Source: a virus
Lineage: Duplodnaviria; Heunggongvirae; Uroviricota; Caudoviricetes
Length of the DNA: 39,748 nt
Virus record (IMG/VR): IMGVR_UViG_2563366998_000008
Direction: 5' to 3' (one strand)
This document shows positions 3,632-38,702 of this stretch, piece after piece. Within the stretch, counting starts at the first letter, position 1, and each line of letters opens with the position of its first letter. A program made the position numbers and the translations under genes. A model generated the notes under the pieces. It was not told the origin of the DNA and did no database searches. It saw only the letters and a program-made list of their open reading frames with translations.

Positions 3632-3833
3632 ATACAGCGAACGCCATTGGTTTAGTTGGATATTTACTGTGCCGGACAAAAACGGTTTGCGGGGAAATCT
3701 TAGTTAAGTAGAATAACTGCGGGTGCTTGAGGCTATCTGTCTCAGGCATGAACACCAAAAGGCAGATAGAGAAAAGCCCCAGTTAACATTACGCGTCCTG
3801 CAAGACGCTTAACATTAATCTGAGGCCATATCT

Positions 3834-3893
3834 ATGCGACACATAGAGATTAGCCTCTTACGGACCGAAAGGTCAAGGAGAAGCAGGCTATGA
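3834..3893 (+). CDS. mok-like leader uORF translationally coupled to hok
   Basis: 19-codon ORF whose TGA (3891-3893) overlaps the hok ATG (3890-3892) as ATGA. Confidence 0.3.
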   Translation: MRHIEISLLRTERSRRSRL

Positions 3894-4859: not shown

Positions 4860-5147
4860 GTGCGGGTATTACTTCGACCTGTTCTGGTACCGGAACTTGG
4901 GCTGGTGGTGCTAAAACCGGGCCGTGAATCCATGCCGGTATTCCACAATACCCGGGTACTGGTGGAGCCGGAACCGAAAAGCATGCGTAATCTGTCGTCC
5001 GGGGAGGCGATGTTAATCGCCCTGATCGTCATCTGTTTAACCGTCATAGTGACGGCACTGGTAACGAGGAAAGACCTCTGCGAGGTACGAATCCGAACCG
5101 GCCAGACGGAGGTCGCTGTCTTCACAGCTTACGAACCTGAGGAGTAA
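4860..5147 (+). CDS. chimeric ORF at the duplication junction: DUF968 N-terminus fused in frame to Hok residues 7-51
   Basis: GTG 4860 with GGAGG RBS; first ~47 aa match the start of 5962..7017, remainder is ...MLIALIVICLTVIVTALVTRKDLCEVRIRTGQTEVAVFTAYEPEE. Confidence 0.5.
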   Translation: MRVLLRPVLVPELGLVVLKPGRESMPVFHNTRVLVEPEPKSMRNLSSGEAMLIALIVICLTVIVTALVTRKDLCEVRIRTGQTEVAVFTAYEPEE

Positions 5148-5363
5148 GAGACCAGGCGAGGGAGAAATCCCTCGCCACCTCAGATGTGGCAGGCATCCTC
5201 AACGCACCCGCACTTAACCCGCTTCGGCGGGTTTTTGTTTTTATTTTCAACGCATTTGAAGTTCTGGACGGTGCCGGAATAGAATCAAAAATACTTAAGT
5301 AGCGCGCAGGGATAAGAGGGATGGTCCCTTAAAGGGGAGAGCTAATTATCCGGAAGGATTCTG

Positions 5364-5615
5364 ATGATGAACATCGAAGAACTGCGTAAAATTTTTTGTG
5401 AAGATGGCCTCTATGCTGTGTGCGTTGAAAATGGAAATATTGTTAGCCATTACCGCATTGTGTGTTTGCAAAAAAATGGGGCTGCGTTAATTAATTTTGT
5501 GGATGCTCGAGTGACGGACGGATTTATCTTGCACGACGGTGAGTTTGTCACTTCATTACAGGCATTGAAAGAGATCGGAATAAAAGCTGGCTTTTCTGCT
5601 TTTTCAGAAGAATAA
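5364..5615 (+). CDS. duplicate copy of the 83-aa Rem-like protein
   Basis: Identical translation to 4262..4513. Confidence 0.55.
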   Translation: MMNIEELRKIFCEDGLYAVCVENGNIVSHYRIVCLQKNGAALINFVDARVTDGFILHDGEFVTSLQALKEIGIKAGFSAFSEE

Positions 5616-5681
5616 ACTCATCTACAATCTTGCGCGGGGCTGAACTCCCGCTGAGTAACACCGTGCCACCGGAGAAAACCG

Positions 5682-5960
5682 ATGGCACGCAACGCAAAAT
5701 ATTACAATCATGATAATTCGACCGTTCTTGCCCACACGCACGAGCGGTATTCTCATGCATTTAAGTCAGACTGGTACCAGCATCCCCCATGCACTGAAGA
5801 ACAGGCCGAGTGGCTAATTCAGTGCTACCGCAGACACGGATACGAGATTAAGAAAGCCCTCAGCCTCGATTATCGTCACTGGATAATCTCCGTCAGGCTC
5901 CCTTACTCCGAACGGCCACCGCGTCCGTCCCGCACATTCCAGCAACGCATCTGGAGGTAA
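5682..5960 (+). CDS. duplicate copy of the 92-aa hypothetical protein
   Basis: Identical translation to 4580..4858. Confidence 0.5.
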   Translation: MARNAKYYNHDNSTVLAHTHERYSHAFKSDWYQHPPCTEEQAEWLIQCYRRHGYEIKKALSLDYRHWIISVRLPYSERPPRPSRTFQQRIWR

Positions 5961-5961
5961 C

Positions 5962-7017
5962 GTGCGGGTATTACTTCGACCTGTTCTGGTACCGGAACTC
6001 GGGCTGGTGATCGTTAAACCGGGCCGTGAATCCATGCCGGTATTCCACAATACCCGGGTACTGGTGGAGCCGGAACCGAAAAGCATGCGTAATCTGTCGT
6101 CCGGGGTCGTTCCTGCCGTTCGCCAGCCGCTGGCGGAGGATAAATCATTACTGCCATTTTTCAGCGACGAACGAGTGATTCGTGCTGCTGGTGGCGCTGG
6201 CGCATTGTCTGACTGGTTACTGCGCCATGTTAAATCCTGCCAGTGGCCACACGGCGATTATCACCACAGTGAAACCGTCATTCACCGTTATGGTACCGGC
6301 GCAATGGTGTTGTGCTGGCACTGCGACAACCAGCTGCGCGACCAGACCTCCGAATCACTCGGGCAACTTGCTCACCAAAACCTGTCTGCATGGATGATTG
6401 ACGTCATACGCCATGCAATGAATGGCTCGCAGGAACGGGAATTATCGCTGGCTGAATTATCCTGGTGGGCGGTCCGCAATCAGGTGGCGGACGCGCTACC
6501 GGAAGCGGTATTACGTCGTTCGCTGGGGTTGCGTGCGGAAAAAATCCGCTCAATGTACCGTGAAAGCGACATCGTACCGGGAGAGCAGACCGCCACCAGC
6601 ATACTGAAACAGCGCACAAAAAATCTTGCGCCGCTGCCTCACGCCCACCAGCAAAACCCGCCACAGGAAAAGACGGTGGTCAGCATTGCCGTTGATCCGG
6701 AGTCACCGGCTCAGTATCTCCAGCGCCAGAAACCACAACGGGAAGAGATGCCTGTATACACGCGCTGGGTAAAAACGCAGAAATGCATGACGTGTGGCAA
6801 TCAGGCAGATGATCCGCATCACATCATTGGTCATGGACTGGGAGGGATGGGAACAAAGGCTGACGATTTGTTTGTTATTCCGCTGTGTCGTAAATGCCAT
6901 AACGAACTACACGCCGGGGTAAAAGATTTTGAAGAAAAACACGGTAGTCAGTTGTTGTTGCTGATTCGTTTTTTAATGCACGCGAGAAATTCGGGTGTTC
7001 TGAAGTGGAAAGCATAA
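5962..7017 (+). CDS. DUF968-family phage protein (YdfU-like) with C-terminal Cys/His cluster
   Basis: GTG 5962 after GGAGG; 351 aa; C-terminal CMTCGN...HHIIGHG...CRKCHNELH. Confidence 0.65.
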   Translation: MRVLLRPVLVPELGLVIVKPGRESMPVFHNTRVLVEPEPKSMRNLSSGVVPAVRQPLAEDKSLLPFFSDERVIRAAGGAGALSDWLLRHVKSCQWPHGDYHHSETVIHRYGTGAMVLCWHCDNQLRDQTSESLGQLAHQNLSAWMIDVIRHAMNGSQERELSLAELSWWAVRNQVADALPEAVLRRSLGLRAEKIRSMYRESDIVPGEQTATSILKQRTKNLAPLPHAHQQNPPQEKTVVSIAVDPESPAQYLQRQKPQREEMPVYTRWVKTQKCMTCGNQADDPHHIIGHGLGGMGTKADDLFVIPLCRKCHNELHAGVKDFEEKHGSQLLLLIRFLMHARNSGVLKWKA

Positions 7018-7386
7018 ATGACCGAACGCATAGAATTTGTTTTGCCTTACTCGCCGACGGTGAACACTTACTGGCGACGCCGTGGCAGCACATATTTTGT
7101 ATCAAAAGCCGGGGAGCGTTATCGCCGGGCAGTGGCGCTTATTGTTCGCCAGCAGCGACTGAAATTAAGCCTGTCCGGACGGCTGGCAATAAAAATTATT
7201 GCAGAGCCACCGGATAAGCGTCGTCGTGACCTGGACAATATTCTGAAAGCACCACTGGATGCGCTGACGCACGCGGGGTTGTTAATGGACGATGAGCAGT
7301 TTGATGAAATCAATATTGTACGTGGCCAGCCAGTATCTGGTGGACGGCTGGAGATAAGAATTACAGAGGTGGGTGTGCATGAATAA
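7018..7386 (+). CDS. rusA: RusA-family Holliday junction resolvase
   Basis: 122-aa product with RRRDLDN and GGRLEI motifs resembling E. coli RusA; ATG abuts the upstream stop. Confidence 0.85.
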   Translation: MTERIEFVLPYSPTVNTYWRRRGSTYFVSKAGERYRRAVALIVRQQRLKLSLSGRLAIKIIAEPPDKRRRDLDNILKAPLDALTHAGLLMDDEQFDEINIVRGQPVSGGRLEIRITEVGVHE

Positions 7387-8068
7387 CCAGTATTTACAGT
7401 TTGTTCGTGAGCAACTCATGATTGCCACTGCAGATCTCAGTGGGTCGACAAAATGCCAGCTGGAAGCCTGGCAGGAAAATGCCCTGTTCGATACAGGGCG
7501 TTACAGACGCAAAAAAATTCGTTACCGCGATGAGGTAACCGGAAAAATGATCACGCGGGATAATCCCCCGATCCAGGGTAAACAATCACTGGCGAAAGGC
7601 TCATCAATTGCGCTGGTCAGTCCTGTTGAGTTTGCAACATCATCGTGGCGGCGTGCTGTTCTGGAACTGGAAGAACATCAGAAGGCGTGGTTGTTGTGGT
7701 GTTATGGCGGAAACATTTGCTGGGAGCATCAGATCGCGATAACGCAGTGGGGGTGGAGTGAATTTAAAACTCAGTCCGGCTCCAGAAAAATTGCAGTGAA
7801 AACGCTGGAGCGTGTGAAGAAGTTGATCTGGCTGGCGGCACAGGATGTCAGAGGATGGGTTACCGGGTGTGAGGTCTACCAGAGACAGGAGCTTGCCAGA
7901 CTGTGTGGAGTTAAGCCTGATAACTGGAGCCATAATTATGCGAACTACTGGCGTGAGATGTGCGATATTTTTAAGCGCCTCGATAGAGAATCCTTGATTT
8001 GCTCCGTGAAAATAAGAGCGCAACAAAAAGCGACCTTTTCACGACGAGATATTGCAAAAGTCAATTAA
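7379..8068 (+). CDS. Q: late-gene antiterminator Q-like protein
   Basis: Position directly after rusA and before a promoter/terminator pair and the lysis genes; ATG 7379 with GAGGTGGG RBS; family assignment by context. Confidence 0.6.
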   Translation: MNNQYLQFVREQLMIATADLSGSTKCQLEAWQENALFDTGRYRRKKIRYRDEVTGKMITRDNPPIQGKQSLAKGSSIALVSPVEFATSSWRRAVLELEEHQKAWLLWCYGGNICWEHQIAITQWGWSEFKTQSGSRKIAVKTLERVKKLIWLAAQDVRGWVTGCEVYQRQELARLCGVKPDNWSHNYANYWREMCDIFKRLDRESLICSVKIRAQQKATFSRRDIAKVN

Positions 8069-8096
8069 ATCGCGTATGTTTCGTATAAATCTGATA
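8061..8096 (+). promoter_or_regulatory. candidate late promoter (PR'-like)
   Basis: TCAATT - 17 bp - TATAAA just downstream of Q and ~40 bp upstream of the terminator. Confidence 0.3.
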
Positions 8097-8133
8097 TTTT
8101 GCCGATTTTGTACGTGATGGCAAAGTAAGAAAA

Positions 8134-8158
8134 AACCACCGCCAGGTGGTTTTTTTTA
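8134..8158 (+). terminator. rho-independent terminator (tR'-like)
   Basis: AACCACC-GCCA-GGTGGTT hairpin followed by TTTTTTT. Confidence 0.6.
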
Positions 8159-8280
8159 TGTCCGAAAATCGCGTCAGTACAGTAAACGCGCTGGTGGTTG
8201 CGAATACGGGTCTTTCAGCTTGCCGGCTTTTTCGACAAGAGTTATTGGTATGTCACGTTAACCGGAAAAGGGAAAAAGAC

Positions 8281-8478
8281 ATGCTAAAACAGCAGGATAT
8301 GACAGAAGCCGCCAGAGTGGTGTTTAATGAATTAAGCGTTACCGACCCGGCGACAGTCAGGGAGATTGCACAGAATACTTACCTTTCACGCGAACGCTGC
8401 CAGTTAATACTGACCCAGCTTGTTATGGCGGGTCTGGCAGACTATCAGTTTGGTTGTTACAGACACCTTCAGTCCTGA
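8281..8478 (+). CDS. small hypothetical protein (65 aa)
   Basis: ATG 8281; alternative upstream ATG at 8158 lies inside the terminator T-run; weak hairpin plus T-run at its stop. Confidence 0.35.
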   Translation: MLKQQDMTEAARVVFNELSVTDPATVREIAQNTYLSRERCQLILTQLVMAGLADYQFGCYRHLQS

Positions 8479-8791
8479 AGGCTTTTTTATTTGTGGTAAA
8501 TGGGCGGCTGGTGGGTGTGGTGGTTGTTGCTTTCCCGTTGCTGAAAAAGAAAACGCCAGACTGTTAGCCGGGTATCAGTTAGCGGGAGAAATTTTTAAAT
8601 ACTTCACAATTCAGGCGGTTGACTGTTGTCTGGTTTGCGGGGAGTTTGTTAAAAGAAACTGGCATGGTGAATCCCCCTGTGCGGAGGGGCAATCAGCGAG
8701 TAGGTATATGGGATAATCGCGGATTCAGGTGCTGGTACTGAATTCACCGGGAGGCACCCGGCACCATGCAATGGCACATAGCGCCACTCTC

Positions 8792-8827
8792 CAGCCCCTC
8801 TCCGGAGGGGCTGTTTATATTGATTTT
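8792..8827 (+). terminator. hairpin with T-rich tail between convergent genes
   Basis: CAGCCCCTC-TCCG-GAGGGGCTG followed by TTTATATTGATTTT. Confidence 0.4.
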
Positions 8828-8847
8828 GTCAGATGTGAGTAAACTCC

Positions 8848-9183
8848 TTATGGACTTTGTTGTTTTAGCCCATAAGGACATATTTGCAGAGTGCAACGGT
8901 TATTAAAGCATTCATTCAATACGTTATCTGTATTTGTAGGGCATTCCTGGCTGTTTTTGATTAAATTCCAGAATGTTTTATTGAATGGTACTACGTTGTA
9001 AATGGTTACAGGTAGCACTTTGTTATTGAGCATGATACCTGTGTGAGTCAGTGTAAATATACTTTCAGGAGGTAAGAAAGCATCCGATTGATACCAGATT
9101 ATTAATTTTATTTTACTCCATATGACTGAAAAAGATATTCCGCATGATGGCTGGATAACTGTATCAATCACAATCCACTTCAT
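8848..9183 (-). CDS. hypothetical protein (111 aa) in an AT-rich island, opposite strand to the late operon
   Basis: Minus-strand ORF with AAGGA about 6 nt upstream of ATG; AT-rich flanks; no recognised domain. Confidence 0.45.
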
Positions 9184-9443
9184 TTAGTTTCCTTGTTTAT
9201 GCCTTGCTGGTGATGTTCTGAAAAGTATAAATGATATTTTTGATTGTAAACCATAGAGCAGAATTATTTTTCTGATGTTGTTTATTGTTTATTTAAATGC
9301 AGGGTGGTTTATATCTCGTCTTGTAGTTTATCCATGCATATCTGCTTGATGATGAGGTTTTTATTTAAGGTATGGTTTTGTGTTTTTTCTGTATTACATG
9401 TCAGGTATTTTAAAGAATCATTTTTCAGATGGTGGAAAGAACC

Positions 9444-9632
9444 ATGGCATTTAAACACTATGATGTTGTCAGGGCGGCGTCGCCGTCAGATCTTGCGGAA
9501 AAGCTGACACATAAACTGAAAGAGGGCTGGCAGCCGTTTGGTAGTCCGGTGGCCATAACCCCTTATACCCTGATGCAGGCGATTGCAGCAGAAGGTGATG
9601 TGGTGGTCAGTGGTGCAACTGAGCCGGAGTGA
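9444..9632 (+). CDS. DUF1737-like small phage protein
   Basis: MAFKHYDVVRAASPSDLAEKLTHKLKEGWQPFGSP... resembles small DUF1737 prophage proteins; alternative start at 9429. Confidence 0.55.
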   Translation: MAFKHYDVVRAASPSDLAEKLTHKLKEGWQPFGSPVAITPYTLMQAIAAEGDVVVSGATEPE

Positions 9633-9874
9633 TACTACGTCATCGTACTGGCCCGGCATTCCAGGCCATAAAAGACGGTCTGGCAGTGGGACTAAATGCA
9701 CTGACGCTGACGGATATTACCAAAAATGCAACGTATGGCGTTGAGATAGAAAGTCTGGTGCTGGAGATAAATGCACCGGCATCATCATAAAAAGTGAGCC
9801 AGTCAAATGGAAGGTATCGTTAAACTCACCGGTAGTGTCAGTGGGTCGTCTGAGACGCCTGCATGAGTTATCAG

Positions 9875-9905
9875 AGCCATCAGTACTTAACTGGTGGCTT
9901 TTTTA
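9875..9905 (+). terminator. rho-independent terminator-like hairpin upstream of the holin gene
   Basis: 9-bp stem (AGCCATCAG / CTGGTGGCT, one G-U) followed by a T-run. Confidence 0.4.
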
Positions 9906-9939
9906 TTGTTGTCAGCTTCCGGATAACGGGAGACGGGGT

Positions 9940-10155
9940 ATGTACCAGATGGAAAAAATCACAACAGGTGTGTCATACACCACGTCAGCGGTGGGAACGG
10001 GCTACTGGTTCCTGCAGTTGCTGGACAGGGTTTCCCCGTCTCAGTGGGCGGCAATAGGCGTGCTGGGGAGTCTGCTGTTTGGGCTGCTGACATATCTGAC
10101 TAACCTGTATTTCAAAATCAAAGAGGACCGGCGTAAGGCGGCGCGGGGAGAGTAA
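9940..10155 (+). CDS. S: class II holin, phage-21 S-type pinholin
   Basis: Dual-start MYQM...; translation closely resembles S21 as recalled (...[22 protein letters not shown]...[21 protein letters not shown]). Confidence 0.85.
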
Positions 10156-10156
10156 A

Positions 10157-11050
10157 GTGATGAATAAAAAATATGAACTGGTTGTTAAGGGGATAAATAA
10201 TTACGGGGATAAGGTTACTGTTACTGTGAAGTCGGAAGGTGACGGGCAAGCGTCGCTGTTGTTGCCAGATGTGGCGATTAGTCTTGACCGTACTGAAGGT
10301 GCCACGCTGGAGTTTTACGAAGCTGAGGCGAAAAAGCAGGCGAAGCAGTTTTTCATGGATGTTGCTGCCGGGTTATGTGAATGGAACGAACCGTTGCCGG
10401 AAAAGCGCCCCGTAATTTTAGAGGCGCAGGATGTGTTGATAACCTACAAAGGAAAGCTACCGGGAAGAATTACTTGTTCTCTGAAGATGCCGCCGTCAAC
10501 ACTGCGGTCAGAAAAAGATGATGTTGAATCACGTATTGAAAAACTGGAGAGCTACGTCGTTGAGCTGAATAAGAAATGGTCGATATTGGTGCCTTCTGGC
10601 GATGAAAAGCAGTTTGCTGCGTTTGACGATTATTGTCGGAAAGTGATGAGCAGAAATCTCGCAGAGTGTTTCAGTATTCATAATGATAATTTCAGTGACC
10701 CGGAATGGGAGTGTAACCGGCCATCCTTTGTTGTATCCGGTGATGCTGGGAAAATAACCATCTCAGAAAATGGGAAAGTAACACCTCCATCGCACCAGCA
10801 CAGTGAGGAGCTCATTGAATTTGCCATTGATTACCTGAAGAACAATAAAAAGCAGGGGCTGATGAAGCGCGTTGGCCGTTGCATGGGATATCTTCAGGTA
10901 GCCGCTGAGATTGAAGCGCTGGCCAGTGGTGCTGATAAGGATGCAATTGTGCGGGAGGCTCTTCTTCGTGATTTTAATACTCCACCCTTTAAAAAAGGGC
11001 CGGCTTACTGGCTTCATCCGGGGCTGACTTATCTTAAAGTGCGTATTTAG
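10157..11050 (+). CDS. hypothetical 297-aa protein inserted between holin and endolysin
   Basis: GTG 10157 / ATG 10160 directly after the holin stop; long clean ORF; no domain recognised; visibly more AT-rich than the structural genes. Confidence 0.6.
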   Translation: MMNKKYELVVKGINNYGDKVTVTVKSEGDGQASLLLPDVAISLDRTEGATLEFYEAEAKKQAKQFFMDVAAGLCEWNEPLPEKRPVILEAQDVLITYKGKLPGRITCSLKMPPSTLRSEKDDVESRIEKLESYVVELNKKWSILVPSGDEKQFAAFDDYCRKVMSRNLAECFSIHNDNFSDPEWECNRPSFVVSGDAGKITISENGKVTPPSHQHSEELIEFAIDYLKNNKKQGLMKRVGRCMGYLQVAAEIEALASGADKDAIVREALLRDFNTPPFKKGPAYWLHPGLTYLKVRI

Positions 11051-11086
11051 TGGGCCAGGGACAGCGGCTGAATATTTAATATATCC

Positions 11087-11620
11087 ATGAACACCAAAAT
11101 CAAATACGGCCTGTCGGCTGCCGTTCTGGCGCTGATTGCCGCTGGTGCGCCTGCGCCTGACATTCTCGACCAGTTTCTGGATGAAAAGGAAGGCAACCAC
11201 ACCACGGCATACCGTGATGGTGCAGGTATCTGGACCATCTGCCGTGGTGCCATCATGGTGGATGGCAAACCTGTCGTTCCGGGCATGAAGTTGTCGAAGG
11301 AAAAATGCGACCAGGTTAACGCCATTGAGCGTGATAAAGCGCTGGCGTGGGTGGAGAAAAACATCAGAGTGCCGCTGACCGAACCCCAGAAAGCGGGGAT
11401 CGCGTCATTCTGTCCGTACAACATTGGTCCCGGTAAGTGTTTCCCGTCGACGTTTTACAGACGAATTAATGCTGGTGATCGAAAAGGTGCCTGCGAAGCG
11501 ATTCGCTGGTGGATTAAGGACGGTGGCAGAGACTGCCGTATTCGTTCAAACAACTGTTACGGTCAGGTATCCCGTCGTGACCAGGAGAGCGCGCTGGCGT
11601 GCTGGGGTATCGACAGATAA
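11087..11620 (+). CDS. R: SAR endolysin (phage-21 R-type lysozyme)
   Basis: N-terminal Gly/Ala-rich signal-anchor-release segment (LSAAVLALIAAGA) plus lysozyme core resembling R21. Confidence 0.85.
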   Translation: MNTKIKYGLSAAVLALIAAGAPAPDILDQFLDEKEGNHTTAYRDGAGIWTICRGAIMVDGKPVVPGMKLSKEKCDQVNAIERDKALAWVEKNIRVPLTEPQKAGIASFCPYNIGPGKCFPSTFYRRINAGDRKGACEAIRWWIKDGGRDCRIRSNNCYGQVSRRDQESALACWGIDR

Positions 11621-11776
11621 GCAGAATATTTTGCTGAAAAATGAGGAATGGCCACGCGGGCGGATAACACGAAATCCTGCGAACTGGCGAAACGTAAGTG
11701 AATAAAAGTAAAAACCCCGTTTGTTGGCACCAAGCGAGGTTTTGTGTTTCTGACCTTGAGTAAGGCAAGGGAGAAC

Positions 11777-11959
11777 ATGGCGAAGTGTAAACGAATTCTG
11801 TTGAGGTTGACTATGAAAAATGGCCTTGAACTGAAAGCGCCTGTAACTGATGACATCAGCAGAGCACTGGCTTTTGCCATTAAGTGGGTGGCGGTCGGTG
11901 TTGCTGTGTCCCCGATGCTGTATGGGCTGGCAAAACTGGTCATTGCGTTGAAATCGTGA
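11777..11959 (+). CDS. small hypothetical protein with C-terminal hydrophobic segment
   Basis: ATG 11777 after GGGAGA; 60 aa. Confidence 0.3.
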
Positions 11960-11973
11960 AGGGAGGATTAAGC

Positions 11974-12105
11974 ATGTCAGACAAACTCATAACGCTGGCG
12001 AAGATCCTCTGTGTAATTGTCGGCATTTCATTTTCACTAATGCTGGTTGCTCTTTTTCTTTCCATGGCCTGGATGATGTTGTCTTCGTCGGGGTTGCTGG
12101 GGTGA
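11974..12105 (+). CDS. small hydrophobic membrane protein (43 aa)
   Basis: ATG 11974 after GGGAGGA; single predicted transmembrane helix; stop overlaps the Rz start. Confidence 0.35.
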
Positions 12106-12575
12106 ACATAAACCGAATGCTTTCCGCGTTTATCGTTATTCTGCTGGTGGCCTGTGGTGCGCTGTGGATGGCAACAGACCATTACCGTGATAACGCGATT
12201 ACCTACAAAGCGCAGCGCGATAACAAAGCCAGTGAACTGAAGCTGGCGAACGCAACCATTACTGATATGCAGGTGCGCCAGCGCGATGTTGCTGCGCTCG
12301 ATGCAAAATACTCGAGGGAATTAGCCGATGCGAGAGCTGAAAATGAAACTCTTCGCGCTGACGTTGCCGCTGGTCGTAAGCGCCTGCGGATCAACGCCAC
12401 CTGTCCAGGCTCCGTGCGTGAAGCCCCCACCACCTCCGGCGTGGATAATGCAACCGGCCCCCAACTGGCAGACACCGTTACACGGGATTATTTCACCCTC
12501 AGAGAGCGGCTGATGACGATGCACAAGCAACTGGAAGGGGCACAGGACTATATCCGCACTCAGTGCCTGAAATAA
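12102..12575 (+). CDS. Rz: Rz i-spanin
   Basis: N-terminal TM then ...[14 protein letters not shown]...VAAGRKRL...[10 protein letters not shown]..., matching lambda Rz; start GTG 12102 or ATG 12117. Confidence 0.85.
12328..12513 (+). CDS. Rz1: Rz1 o-spanin lipoprotein, embedded in Rz in the +1 frame
   Basis: Signal peptide with lipobox ending in Cys, then proline-rich [14 protein letters not shown]..., matching lambda Rz1. Confidence 0.8.
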
Positions 12576-12885
12576 GTTTTGTTGATGCGCCGTATCGTCG
12601 CTATATTCCCTCATTAACAGAGACCGCAGCCCGACAGGGAGACTCCTCTGCGCGAGTGTGCGGGGATAATTAAAAACGATGCACACCGGGTTTTTACCGC
12701 GTTAATGATTCGCGGGTTTATCCCGGTGCGATGGTGGAAGAAACAGGAAGCTGTATTACAGAAAGTGCTACTACTGTATCCCGATGCGATGTATGTAATG
12801 TGAGTCAGATAATGGCACAGGATGTGGTGATGTGGCAGTCTGGAACACAGGATATATTGTCAGAATAAGACCCGTAGGAATAAAA

Positions 12886-13212
12886 ATGAAAAGACGCCTT
12901 TTACTACTTTTTCTGTTATCTGTCCTGGCAGTGGGATGCTCGCAGCAAAAAGCTGATGAGCCCCGGCAATTAGTGACGGTGTATCCACGATATCCGGAAT
13001 ATGCTGCAGCAAATTATATCAAGGGGCTGGTTGAGGTTAAGTTCGATATTGGTGCTGATGGGACTGTGACACGGATCGTTTTTCTCCGCTCAGAGCCTCA
13101 TAATTTGTTTCGTGATGAAGTGGTGAAGGCCATGGCGAAATGGCGATTTGAAAAGAATCGCCCCTGTCAGGGAGTGAAGAGACAATTTATCTTTACGCCG
13201 TCACGTCCTTGA
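12886..13212 (+). CDS. lipoprotein with TonB C-terminal-like domain
   Basis: Signal peptide MKRRLLLLFLLSVLAVGC (lipobox LAVGC); mature region YPRYPEYAAANYIKGLVEVKFDIGADGTVTRIVFLRSEPHNLFRDEVVKAMAKWRFE aligns by eye to the E. coli TonB C-terminal domain. Confidence 0.7.
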   Translation: MKRRLLLLFLLSVLAVGCSQQKADEPRQLVTVYPRYPEYAAANYIKGLVEVKFDIGADGTVTRIVFLRSEPHNLFRDEVVKAMAKWRFEKNRPCQGVKRQFIFTPSRP

Positions 13213-13304
13213 TGCTTCCAGGTAGAGAGGGGCTGGACGCAGGAGAAAAATGAAAGAGCCAGCGGTTATATTTTTGTCATGGCTGACGAGGAATGATGGA
13301 AGAA

Positions 13305-13327
13305 GGCGTTGTATGCCACACAACGCC
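13305..13327. terminator. hairpin between convergent genes
   Basis: GGCGTTGT / ACAACGCC stem, T-rich downstream on the + strand. Confidence 0.35.
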
Positions 13328-13575
13328 TCACTGTTCATTTCTTCTTTTTCTCTGGTGGAACCCGATGAATAAGAGTTGCACTGGTTTCCGATGAGATGGC
13401 GATATACTCGGGCAAAGTATGCTGGCAGTTTTCCAACTGGTCAAAAATACCTGCTCTCGTCTGTTGCAATGCCTGCAGCATGCGGCGGCAATGCGCCTTG
13501 CTTTTACTAACCATCTTTCCTTCCTCTATCAGTCGCTGCGTGAACTCATCATGTAATACCAGGTAAATGCGGATG

Positions 13576-13827
13576 TTATCGGTTTTGGCTACGCAGCATA
13601 GTACAAAACGGACAGGTGCATCCCGGGACGGGGGAGGCGTCACATGTCCCTGTGATGGTTGTTCCGGGTAATGCACTGTGTGGGGCATAAAAATGTCCGA
13701 TAATTTTACTTTCTACCGCAGTTAGTTGATTCGTTGGTCCTGGTAGCACATTGGGCGAGGATTTAAATGCCAGGCAACTGAAGGATGATGTTGCAAGGGA
13801 GATAGCGAGAATATTTCTGATTTTCAT
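13576..13827 (-). CDS. possible small secreted cysteine-rich protein
   Basis: Minus-strand ATG (13825-13827) with GAGG ~9 nt upstream; N-terminal signal-peptide-like MKIRNILAISLATSSFSCLA; four Cys near the C-terminus; overlaps another minus-strand ORF (13335..13688). Confidence 0.3.
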   Translation of the reverse strand: MKIRNILAISLATSSFSCLAFKSSPNVLPGPTNQLTAVESKIIGHFYAPHSALPGTTITGTCDASPVPGCTCPFCTMLRSQNR

Positions 13828-13975
13828 TTGATGATGCCTCTGTGTGAAATGACGGTAAACGACGCACTTGTGCCGGCACATAATAGCAAGCACCATAATA
13901 GATCAGATTCGATTCTTGCTGTAAGTGATAATTATTCTCGTTTTCGGGTCCTTTCCGTCGATCCAACAGGTTACG

Positions 13976-13987
13976 GGGCGGCGACCT
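13976..13987 (+). other. cosN cohesive-end site (GGGCGGCGACCT)
   Basis: ...CGATCCAACAGGTTACG | GGGCGGCGACCTCGCGGGTTTTCGCTATTTATGAAAATTTTCCGG matches the lambda cos junction as recalled. Confidence 0.85.
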
Positions 13988-14130
13988 CGCGGGTTTTCGC
14001 TATTTATGAAAATTTTCCGGGAACCATGTCCGGTTTCTCTTCAAGTTAACTATATGAAAAATAAAAAAAGAGGTCTTCTGTGAACCGGACATGCACAAAA
14101 AATAGACATGTAAGCCGGACATGACCGGTT
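13988..14130 (+). promoter_or_regulatory. cosB region with three copies of a CCGGACATG motif
   Basis: Motif at 14023-14034 (inverted), 14083-14093 and 14114-14124, between cosN and the small terminase gene. Confidence 0.5.
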
Positions 14131-20204: not shown

Positions 20205-20930
20205 GCCTGACTGATTGTGCACAGAAAACCCCCAGCTAGGCTGGGGGTTCCGGAAAGCTTTCAGCTTTGAGCCAGTTATTAAAACCCCTTTTGATTTGTT
20301 AAAACACCTTGCGGTCTGGCAACTGCAAGTGTCAAACAAGAAATCAAAAGGGGGTCCCAATGGGGAACGAAAAGAGCTTAGCGCACACCCGATGGAACTG
20401 TAAATATCACATAGTTTTTGCGCCAAAATACCGAAGACAGGTGTTCTACAGAGAGAAGCGTAGAGCAATAGGCAGTATTTTGAGAAAGCTGTGTGAGTGG
20501 AAAAGCGTACGGATTCTGGAAGCTGAATGCTGTGCAGATCATATCCATATGCTTGTGGAGATCCCGCCTAAAATGAGCGTATCCGGGTTTATGGGATATC
20601 TGAAAGGGAAAAGCAGTCTGATGCTTTACGAGCAGTTTGGTGATTTGAAATTCAAATACAGGAACAGGGAGTTCTGGTGCAGAGGGTACTACGTCGATAC
20701 AGTGGGTAAGAACACGGCGAAGATACAGGATTACATAAAGCACCAGCTTGAAGAGGATAAAATGGGAGAGCAGTTATCGATTCCCTATCCGGGCAGCCCG
20801 TTTACGGGCCGTAAGTAACGAAGTTGGATGCAAATGTCAGATCGTGTGCGCCTGTTAGGGCGCGGCTGGTAAGAGAGCCTTATAGGCGCATTTGAAAAAC
20901 CTCCGGCTATGCCGGAGGATATTTATTTTC
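20205..20930 (+). mobile_element. IS200-family insertion sequence (boundaries approximate, +/- 30 bp)
   Basis: Y1 transposase gene flanked by subterminal perfect hairpins (CCCCCAGC-TAGG-CTGGGGG near the left end; CTCCGGC-TAT-GCCGGAG near the right); enlarges the D-E gap to 769 bp. Confidence 0.75.
20360..20818 (+). CDS. tnpA: IS200/IS605-family Y1 (HUH) transposase TnpA
   Basis: MGNEKSLAHTRWNCKYHIVFAPKYRR...HIHMLVEIPPK...YLKGKSS characteristic of IS200 TnpA. Confidence 0.9.
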   Translation: MGNEKSLAHTRWNCKYHIVFAPKYRRQVFYREKRRAIGSILRKLCEWKSVRILEAECCADHIHMLVEIPPKMSVSGFMGYLKGKSSLMLYEQFGDLKFKYRNREFWCRGYYVDTVGKNTAKIQDYIKHQLEEDKMGEQLSIPYPGSPFTGRK

Positions 20931-38118: not shown

Positions 38119-38702
38119 TGGCATTCAGAATGAGTGAACAAGCACGGACCATAAAAATTTATAATCTGCTGGCCGGAACTAATGAATTTATTGGTGAAGG
38201 TGACGCATATATTCCGCCTCATACAGGTCTGCCAGCAAACAGTACCGATATTGCACCACCAGATATTCCTGCTGGCTTTGTGGCTGTTTTCAACAGTGAT
38301 GAGGCATCGTGGCATCTCGTTGAAGACCATCGGGGGAAAACGGTTTATGACGTAGCGTCAGGGGACGAGTTATTTATTTCTGAACTCGGTCCGTTACCGG
38401 AAAATGTTACCTGGTTATCGCCGGAAGGGGAGTTTCAGAAGTGGAACGGCACAGCCTGGGTGAAGGATACGGAAGCAGAAAAACTGTTCCGGATCCGGGA
38501 GGCGGAAGAAACAAAAAACAACCTGATGCAGGTAGCCAGTGAGCATATTGCGCCGCTTCAGGATGCTGCAGATCTGGAAATTGCAACGGAGGAAGAAACC
38601 TCATTGCTGGAAGCCTGGAAAAAGTATCGGGTGTTGCTGAACCGTGTTGATACATCAACTGCACCTGATATTGAGTGGCCTACGAACCCTGTCAGGGAGT
38701 AA
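38118..38702 (+). CDS. tfa: tail fiber assembly protein (Tfa)
   Basis: 194 aa; start overlaps stf stop (TAATG); typical Tfa C-terminus. Confidence 0.9.
38538..38702 (+). repeat. tfa 3' segment, direct repeat copy A
   Basis: ~165 bp, roughly 85-90% identical by eye to 39587..39748. Confidence 0.8.

Follow-up and report, generated by a model that had tools for sequence, protein, structure and literature searches.

A predicted intrinsic terminator at the edge of an S21-type lysis cassette and an out-of-frame esterase remnant in a lambdoid prophage late region

Genes and RNA features of the late region

We analyzed a 39,748-nucleotide stretch of a Caudoviricetes genome (IMG/VR record IMGVR_UViG_2563366998_000008), referred to below as the window. 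It corresponds to the late half of a lambdoid prophage, and the part that was compared with the E. coli strain 7/2 chromosome is 100% identical to it. The features are ordered as follows: Q, a leader RNA with its terminator, an iraM moron on the reverse strand, the remnant of an esterase gene, a hairpin followed by a T-run, the holin, the endolysin, the spanins and the structural genes (Table 1). In the identical locus PGAP names the first of these genes 'bacteriophage antitermination protein Q'. Downstream of the holin a DUF1327/YdfR-like ORF, a SAR-type lysozyme (PF00959) and the spanins all lie on the + strand, and the terminase, head and tail genes continue on that strand as large ORFs to ~38 kb. 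The region thus has the one-strand layout of a late operon, with Q upstream and the lysis and morphogenesis genes downstream, and because this + strand layout extends from Q through the structural genes, the hairpin and the 53-codon ORF that precedes it lie inside the late transcription unit. The ORF between holin and endolysin has 297 codons and resembles DUF1327/YdfR in its first ~100 residues only; PGAP treats it as a truncated YdfR pseudogene.

Table 1. Coordinates of features in the window (strand as +, − or both; positions count from the first letter of the window)
Feature	Position	Strand	Evidence and remarks
sok antitoxin RNA	3721-3892	+	Rfam gathering-level match
Q late antiterminator gene	7373..8068	+	PF06323 Phage_antiter_Q, E = 2e-82; defines the late operon
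A-run, stem, T-run hairpin	8130-8155	both	AAAAAACCACC-TGGC-GGTGGTTTTTT
STnc100-family RNA	8633..8822	+	Rfam RF02076, 132 bits (gathering score 47); terminator at 8792-8813
iraM (anti-adapter) homologue, moron	8848-9183	−	PGAP
Head fragment of nanS-p-type esterase gene (DUF1737)	9444..9632	+	PF08410, E = 3e-17; TGA at 9630-9632
53-codon ORF, GTG...TAA	9629..9790	+	codons 8-53 are the last 46 of the esterase; codons 1-7 are head sequence, out of frame
Deletion junction	9648..9663		single copy of an imperfect 16-bp direct repeat, CTGGCC(G/C)GGCA(G/T)TCCA
Esterase gene 3' UTR	9791..9872	+	contiguous with the tail in intact relatives (Stx2-86, OK1, Sakai Sp9)
Predicted terminator hairpin	9873..9901	+	consensus scan: 12-pair stem, 5-nt loop
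Hairpin core	9876-9884/9890-9898	+	9-bp stem with five G-C pairs; loop 9885-9889
T-run	9899..9912	+	TTTTTT at 9899-9904, then ATTGTTGT
Small stem-loop	9916..9932	+	CUUCCG-GAUAA-CGGGAG; overlaps the holin Shine-Dalgarno region
S21-type class II holin (pinholin)	9940..10155	+	PF04971 'Bacteriophage P21 holin S', E = 7e-33; PGAP class II holin
297-codon ORF	10157-11050	+	between holin and endolysin
STnc490 Hfq-binding RNA	20227-20350	+	Rfam gathering-level match
IS009	38461-38659	+	Rfam gathering-level match

The terminator of the STnc100-family RNA is the top-ranked terminator-like site of the region that we scanned (5000–14000). No promoter hexamers between 8069 and 8633 passed our promoter scan; an STnc100 RNA with a strong terminator at this place fits a leader, and we infer that the RNA is probably the pR' leader, that is, the leader of the constitutive late promoter with a tR'-type terminator, analogous to StxS. 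STnc100 is kin to PasD of enteropathogenic E. coli (EPEC) and adjoins Q genes (bioRxiv 10.64898/2026.05.13.724894). Some ~60 nt past the Q stop codon lies another hairpin, which is flanked by an A-run and a T-run and looks like a bidirectional terminator. The iraM homologue, which gave no Pfam match, is located between the leader terminator and the esterase remnant, and an identical copy of its protein is encoded beside an intact esterase gene in prophage PP5 of E2348/69 (locus L012).

The holin begins MYQMEK and has a dual start, with Met1 at 9940 and Met4 at 9949. In the small stem-loop just before it the pairs are kept in nearly all of 22 variants, which carry five different loop sequences, and we take this stem to be, probably, the start-choice structure described for the dual-start S21 holin. 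The PF04971 match, the Met1/Met4 dual start and the small stem over the Shine-Dalgarno sequence make the leader resemble that of the S21 pinholin of phage 21. It is unlike the classical S21-like leaders of DLP12 (K-12; L137 3754-3775) and phage 434 (L139), in which a different hairpin with a T-rich stretch, not homologous to that of the window, lies ~125 nt upstream of the holin. This hairpin and T-rich stretch are annotated in neither the DLP12 nor the phage 434 record, and the expert annotation of phage 434 marks no terminator before its S leader. K-12 DLP12 was considered as a proxy through which published 3'-end maps might be read, and was set aside for the non-homology of its S leader.

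The esterase remnant and its 53-codon ORF

The sequence-only reading had drawn attention to a GTG-initiated frame of 53 codons, ending in TAA, behind the DUF1737 gene. The frame is present, is listed mechanically among the ORFs and appears in the PGAP annotation of E. coli strain 7/2 as the hypothetical protein WP_001309421.1. It has no Pfam match, and by BLASTP its residues 8–53 are identical at 41 of 46 positions (89%) to the C-terminus of Stx2-86 gp03, a 631-aa esterase. The DUF1737 ORF upstream of it covers the N-terminal domain of the same family, matching the first ~60 residues, and PGAP records it as a pseudogene with its C-terminus missing. At the nucleotide level the head shares 99% identity with the 5' part of intact 617-aa genes (e.g. 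IMG/VR locus L016), and the tail, which is in frame with the parental C-terminus, is 97.8% identical to these genes, with three nucleotide differences from the closest of them, all nonsynonymous. By these alignments the two ORFs are the head and the tail of one 617-aa esterase gene with the domain order DUF1737-SASA-DUF6645.

The alignments of head and tail to full-length genes overlap at the 16-bp junction, for which the parent genes carry two imperfect copies, CTGGCCGGGCAGTCCA at the head and CTGGCCCGGCATTCCA at the tail. Head and tail are spaced by 7 nt in the window compared with 1514 nt in L016, so that 1507 bp are missing relative to L016 and L005; as 1507 is 3n+1, head and tail are read in different frames. 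In place of parental TGG the window has TGA, which closes the head frame, and the GTG 'start' is made of the G of parental GAG and the TG of the codon that follows (GAG-TGG). A 1507-bp deletion between the imperfect repeats took out the catalytic part of the gene and altered its frame, and the change of TGG to TGA then closed the frame of the head. The gene has the DUF1737 head, the 46-residue tail and the position between the Q region and S of the nanS-p/YjhS-type sialate O-acetylesterases (933W L0105, Stx2-86 gp03, Sakai ECs_1781). Unlike them it lacks SASA and DUF6645, both of which are found in a single intact frame in the 617-aa relatives; with these domains deleted and the frame broken, it is therefore a pseudogene and not an esterase.

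We sampled 18 alleles of the junction, of which 15 read GAGTGA and three GATTGG, the latter without a stop in the head frame. All eight variable sites in the tails of these deletion alleles are nonsynonymous, and none of the 18 tails contains a further stop or frameshift. The nonsynonymous excess points to relaxed constraint, although the numbers are small. Of 5426 complete E. coli genomes, 849 contain a nearly full-length match to a query that spans the junction, and the junction is also found in the sequenced phage vB_EcoS-640R1, which indicates that the dead allele rides on a successful prophage block carrying iraM. The prophage of O157:H7 SS52 (L004 3001-3820) shows an independent and different deletion in the same esterase gene, which leaves a 93-nt head and a frameshifted part of DUF6645, and the gene seems prone to decay in prophages.

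As a gene, the 53-codon ORF does not hold up. Every occurrence of its sequence was either the 3' terminus of a full-length gene or an allele with this one deletion junction, and we detected neither conservation as a unit of its own nor purifying selection. The frame is what a deletion has left, out of frame, of the 3' part of a nanS-p-type esterase gene.

Structure, conservation and linkage of the hairpin

Upstream of the holin the window reads atcAGAGCCATCAGTacttaACTGGTGGCTTTtttattgttgt (9870–9912), within which the hairpin is AGAGCCATCAGT-ACTTA-ACTGGTGGCTTT and the tail that follows is TTTATTGTTG. The core stem has an energy of −12.9 kcal/mol, and three additional A-U/G-U pairs reach into the T-run. 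Eight of the nine nucleotides after the last G/C of the stem are T, and the last T (9904) is followed by 35 nt before the holin ATG (9940). The T-run is confined to the + strand; on the − strand the tail past the stem is TGATAACTCA. Hence both parts of an intrinsic terminator, a stem-loop and a 3' U-tract, are present on the transcribed strand. The 53 nt from 9860 to 9912 fold with −18.3 kcal/mol (z = −3.5), and none of 200 shuffles folds as well. A rough terminator score comes to ~+30 and equals that of the STnc100 terminator of the window. Sequence, fold and gene layout all agree with the earlier proposal that a hairpin with a T-run stands 35 bp before the holin start within the late operon.

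The hairpin has the second longest stem of the 17 terminator-like sites that the consensus scan reported between 5000 and 14000. In shuffles of these 9 kb we expect 8.7 ± 3.4 such sites, and therefore one motif of this kind is not improbable by chance and proves little alone. It is conservation, and not the scan, that places the element beyond chance.

We assembled 132 copies of the 5' region of the holin gene. Some were retrieved from IMG/VR contigs with an exact pattern that spans the Shine-Dalgarno sequence and the start, others from records of phages and of E. coli. A hairpin is kept upstream of the S21-type holin in 131 of these phage and prophage copies, with its 3' end 38–45 nt before the ATG. 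The copies comprise 31 distinct 80-nt versions with clearly different arms, for example GCCATCAGT/ACTGGTGGC, GACCATCGG/CCGGTGGTC, GGCTGTCAGTG/CACTGGCGGCC and GCCGCCAGT/ACTGGTGGT. In an alignment of 22 distinct variants, 95% of the stem cells of the 12-pair helix are paired and five of the 12 pairs show two-sided changes, whereas pairing falls to 42–75% in slid controls in which the 3' partner is moved by 1–3 columns. The structure is thus maintained through compensatory changes.

The T-run is less uniform than the stem. About 100 of the 132 copies have 6–8 T within the nine bases past the stem, and ~20 copies keep the stem and its spacing with a poor T-run and a rough score near −29. This second class has a GGGGCTGTCGG-type hairpin and is found at IMG/VR loci (e.g. 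variants v7–v9 of alignment A2), the T-run being degraded to TCCTGTTGTTG. It represents either a decayed terminator or a stem that is kept for another reason, and with these ~20 copies in view, the stem may in some lineages be maintained by something other than termination.

To which of its neighbors the hairpin belongs can be read from where homology to other prophages breaks, namely at 9648, at 9870/9871 and at 9893. Where the esterase is intact and belongs to the allele group of the window (Stx2-86, O157 OK1 and Sakai Sp9), the match runs unbroken from 9648 across the holin, with 96–97% identity over 9648–9950. At loci of the 933W and BA92 types the match begins at 9870/9871, two to five bases before the stem, and the upstream gene differs, being L0106 in 933W and a gene on the reverse strand in BA92. 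At VT2-Sakai-type loci the match begins only at 9893, because the arms of the stem carry compensated changes. The same or a compensated hairpin is thus found before S in five upstream contexts, which are the esterase tail (Stx2-86, OK1, Sakai Sp9), L0106 (933W), orf43 (VT2-Sakai), DUF826 (WP3-W18) and the reverse-strand gene of BA92. Since the hairpin stays with the holin although the gene upstream changes, it marks the left edge of the lysis cassette; as far as sequence comparison goes, it is a part of the S21-type holin/lysis cassette and not the 3' end of the cargo gene.

Possible roles of the hairpin

We consider it probable that the hairpin is a Q-passable intrinsic terminator at the edge of the lysis cassette and that, at the same time, the 53-codon ORF is a functionless remnant of the esterase gene. 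In lambdoid and Stx phages transcription from the late promoter is constitutive, and in the lysogen these transcripts end at tR' (PMC7547250; PMC12078605). Polymerase that Q has modified passes terminators and transcribes cargo and lysis genes alike. In the lysogen, RNA polymerase that is not modified by Q would most likely stop at the hairpin and T-run (9873–9904), the proposed left edge of the S21-type cassette. Such polymerase may have leaked past the upstream leader terminator or may have started within the cargo region, and stopping it there would keep the gene of the lethal pinholin, 35 nt further on, silent. Upon induction, Q-modified polymerase coming from the late promoter would ignore the hairpin and transcribe the lysis genes. 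That the hairpin keeps its spacing before the pinholin whatever the cargo would be best explained if it acts as a second barrier to leak-through and cargo transcription.

Like the tR' terminators of lambda and of the Stx phages, the latter of which yields StxS, the hairpin is a late-strand stem-loop that is followed by a U-tract and placed between Q and the lysis genes. By analogy it would be expected to behave as they do, stopping unmodified polymerase and being ignored by polymerase that carries Q (for the principle, PMC7547250 and PMC12078605). Unlike tR' the hairpin is not promoter-proximal, a position that is probably taken by the STnc100 terminator; it is found ~1.1 kb further on, directly before the holin. 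It also differs from the tR' of Stx phages in that no RNA product is known for it. We found no published or annotated terminator before S in the records of H-19B, 933W, Stx2-86, VT2-Sakai and phage 434 or in the literature that we searched, and that literature contains no experiment on the hairpin before the holin and no transcript map of it.

The sequence-only reading had the hairpin block transcription that arrives from upstream cargo genes. The terminator part of that proposal is supported by the anatomy, the strand and the compensatory changes. The other part needs revision, as cargo is not the sole candidate source of the stopped transcripts and the element belongs to the holin cassette. 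With homology to 933W-type and BA92-type prophages beginning at 9870/9871, leak-through from the late promoter is as likely a source as cargo promoters. Our promoter scan found no sigma-70-like promoter on the + strand from iraM to the hairpin, and any source of the transcripts that it would stop is therefore a candidate only. In Stx2a strains nanS-p mRNA rises by 1–2.4 log after mitomycin C (PMC10462455), and hence late transcription crosses this interval in relatives.

The cargo gene has a claim of its own on the hairpin. A moron is a promoter-gene-terminator cassette in lambdoid late regions (Juhala et al. 2000, in the accounts given by PMC4104026 and PMC8065619), and morons with their own terminators have been described (PMC8065619). 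Like such terminators, the hairpin comes after cargo, here of the nanS-p type, that has been inserted downstream of the late promoter and ahead of the lysis genes; in the window type it lies 83 nt past the esterase stop, and in Stx2-86, OK1 and Sakai Sp9 the entire 3' UTR is contiguous with the gene. It might accordingly be the terminator of the esterase moron itself, acting in nanS-p 3' end formation and mRNA stability, with the holin nearby only by coincidence. We regard this as unlikely: unlike a moron terminator the hairpin segregates with the holin cassette, it keeps its 38–45 nt to the holin behind upstream genes that are unrelated or are read from the opposite strand, and the homology to loci with other upstream genes starts just before the stem. 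The role of a moron terminator and that of a lysis-cassette element are not mutually exclusive.

The stem could also be conserved for something other than termination. In one version the S21-type lysis cassette keeps it, as RNA or as DNA, mainly for processing or stability of the holin message or for the choice of start codon, and so for lysis timing, or else to provide homology for cassette swaps between lambdoid phages; we hold this to be quite improbable. Somewhat less probable again is the version in which it serves mainly late mRNA processing, stability, the timing of holin translation or a 'linker' function in module recombination, with termination secondary. The fixed spacing from the stem to the holin start would suit either version, as would the ~20 copies with a degraded T-run and the two independent homology breakpoints at the 5' edge of the stem. 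The otherwise unalignable spacer of the PasA type moreover has the arm ACTGG(T/C)GGCTTTTTT in common with the window. This likeness is marginal, with a local alignment score of 27 compared with a shuffle mean of 17.5 and maximum of 28, and we do not claim homology between the two types of hairpin. The T-rich tail of ~100 copies argues for termination, and decay in cryptic prophages would explain the degraded T-runs equally well. A terminator that belongs to the cassette remains the reading that we prefer.

A further candidate role is that of the 3' end of a small RNA, either an Hfq-binding RNA released from the esterase 3' UTR or an intergenic RNA like PasA and PasC. These two are validated Hfq-dependent sRNAs that are encoded between the sialate esterase and holin genes of EPEC E2348/69 (PMC8550237; bioRxiv 10.64898/2026.05.13.724894), and Hfq usually binds RNAs at a stem with a poly-U tail. 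PasA/PasC prophages also share the esterase-holin interval, and in them a hairpin with similar arms and a T-run stands on the + strand ~55 nt upstream of the holin. The RNAs themselves are transcribed from the opposite strand of a 447-bp spacer that is absent from the window, where the spacer is 149 bp; a search of the window that allowed up to three mismatches did not find the PasA core, and past the end of the esterase gene the window spacer does not align with PasA/PasC spacers. The spacer of Sakai Sp9 is of the window type, and the 63 orphan Hfq-binding peaks of Tree et al. 2014 include none in the interval from ECs_1781 to ECs_1782. Rfam gave no match for 9791–9907 at E ≤ 1 and nothing credible at the gathering threshold, and our scan returned no promoter-like site in the spacer. 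An sRNA end is thus a poor prospect. Three identities were considered and discarded: PasA/PasC, for strand, spacer length and absence from the window; the anti-sRNAs AsxR/AgvB, AsxR being located elsewhere, 3' of stx2B; and HnrS (EcOnc10-12), which lies elsewhere as well, downstream of Rz in Sakai Sp9.

Least probable of all is that the 53-codon ORF was co-opted after the deletion as a real, translationally coupled small gene: its GTGA overlap with the TGA of the head ORF could allow some reinitiation, none of the 18 deletion alleles sampled interrupts it, it is widespread with the junction, and PGAP calls it a CDS, but the GTG is already contained in the GAG-TGG of the intact parent, three alleles have GATTGG in place of GAGTGA, the only GGAG directly abuts the GTG with zero spacer, the variable sites of the tail are all nonsynonymous in a product that matches no domain, and its 46 homologous residues are merely the end of a larger C-terminal region.

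Both the predicted terminator and the pseudogene fragment are ordinary features of lambdoid late regions, and they raise no new question. The terminator is of a known kind, intrinsic, at a position that has not been described. For annotation, the 'hypothetical protein' WP_001309421.1 of hundreds of E. coli genomes can be recognized as an out-of-frame esterase tail, and the neighboring 'DUF1737 protein' as the head of the same deleted nanS-p-type gene. For the prophage, a second terminator at the cassette edge, shielding the lethal pinholin whatever cargo lies upstream, would be a sensible if unremarkable design. If confirmed by experiment, it would account for the survival of a lysogen whose late promoter leaks or whose cargo genes, placed between that promoter and S, are expressed.
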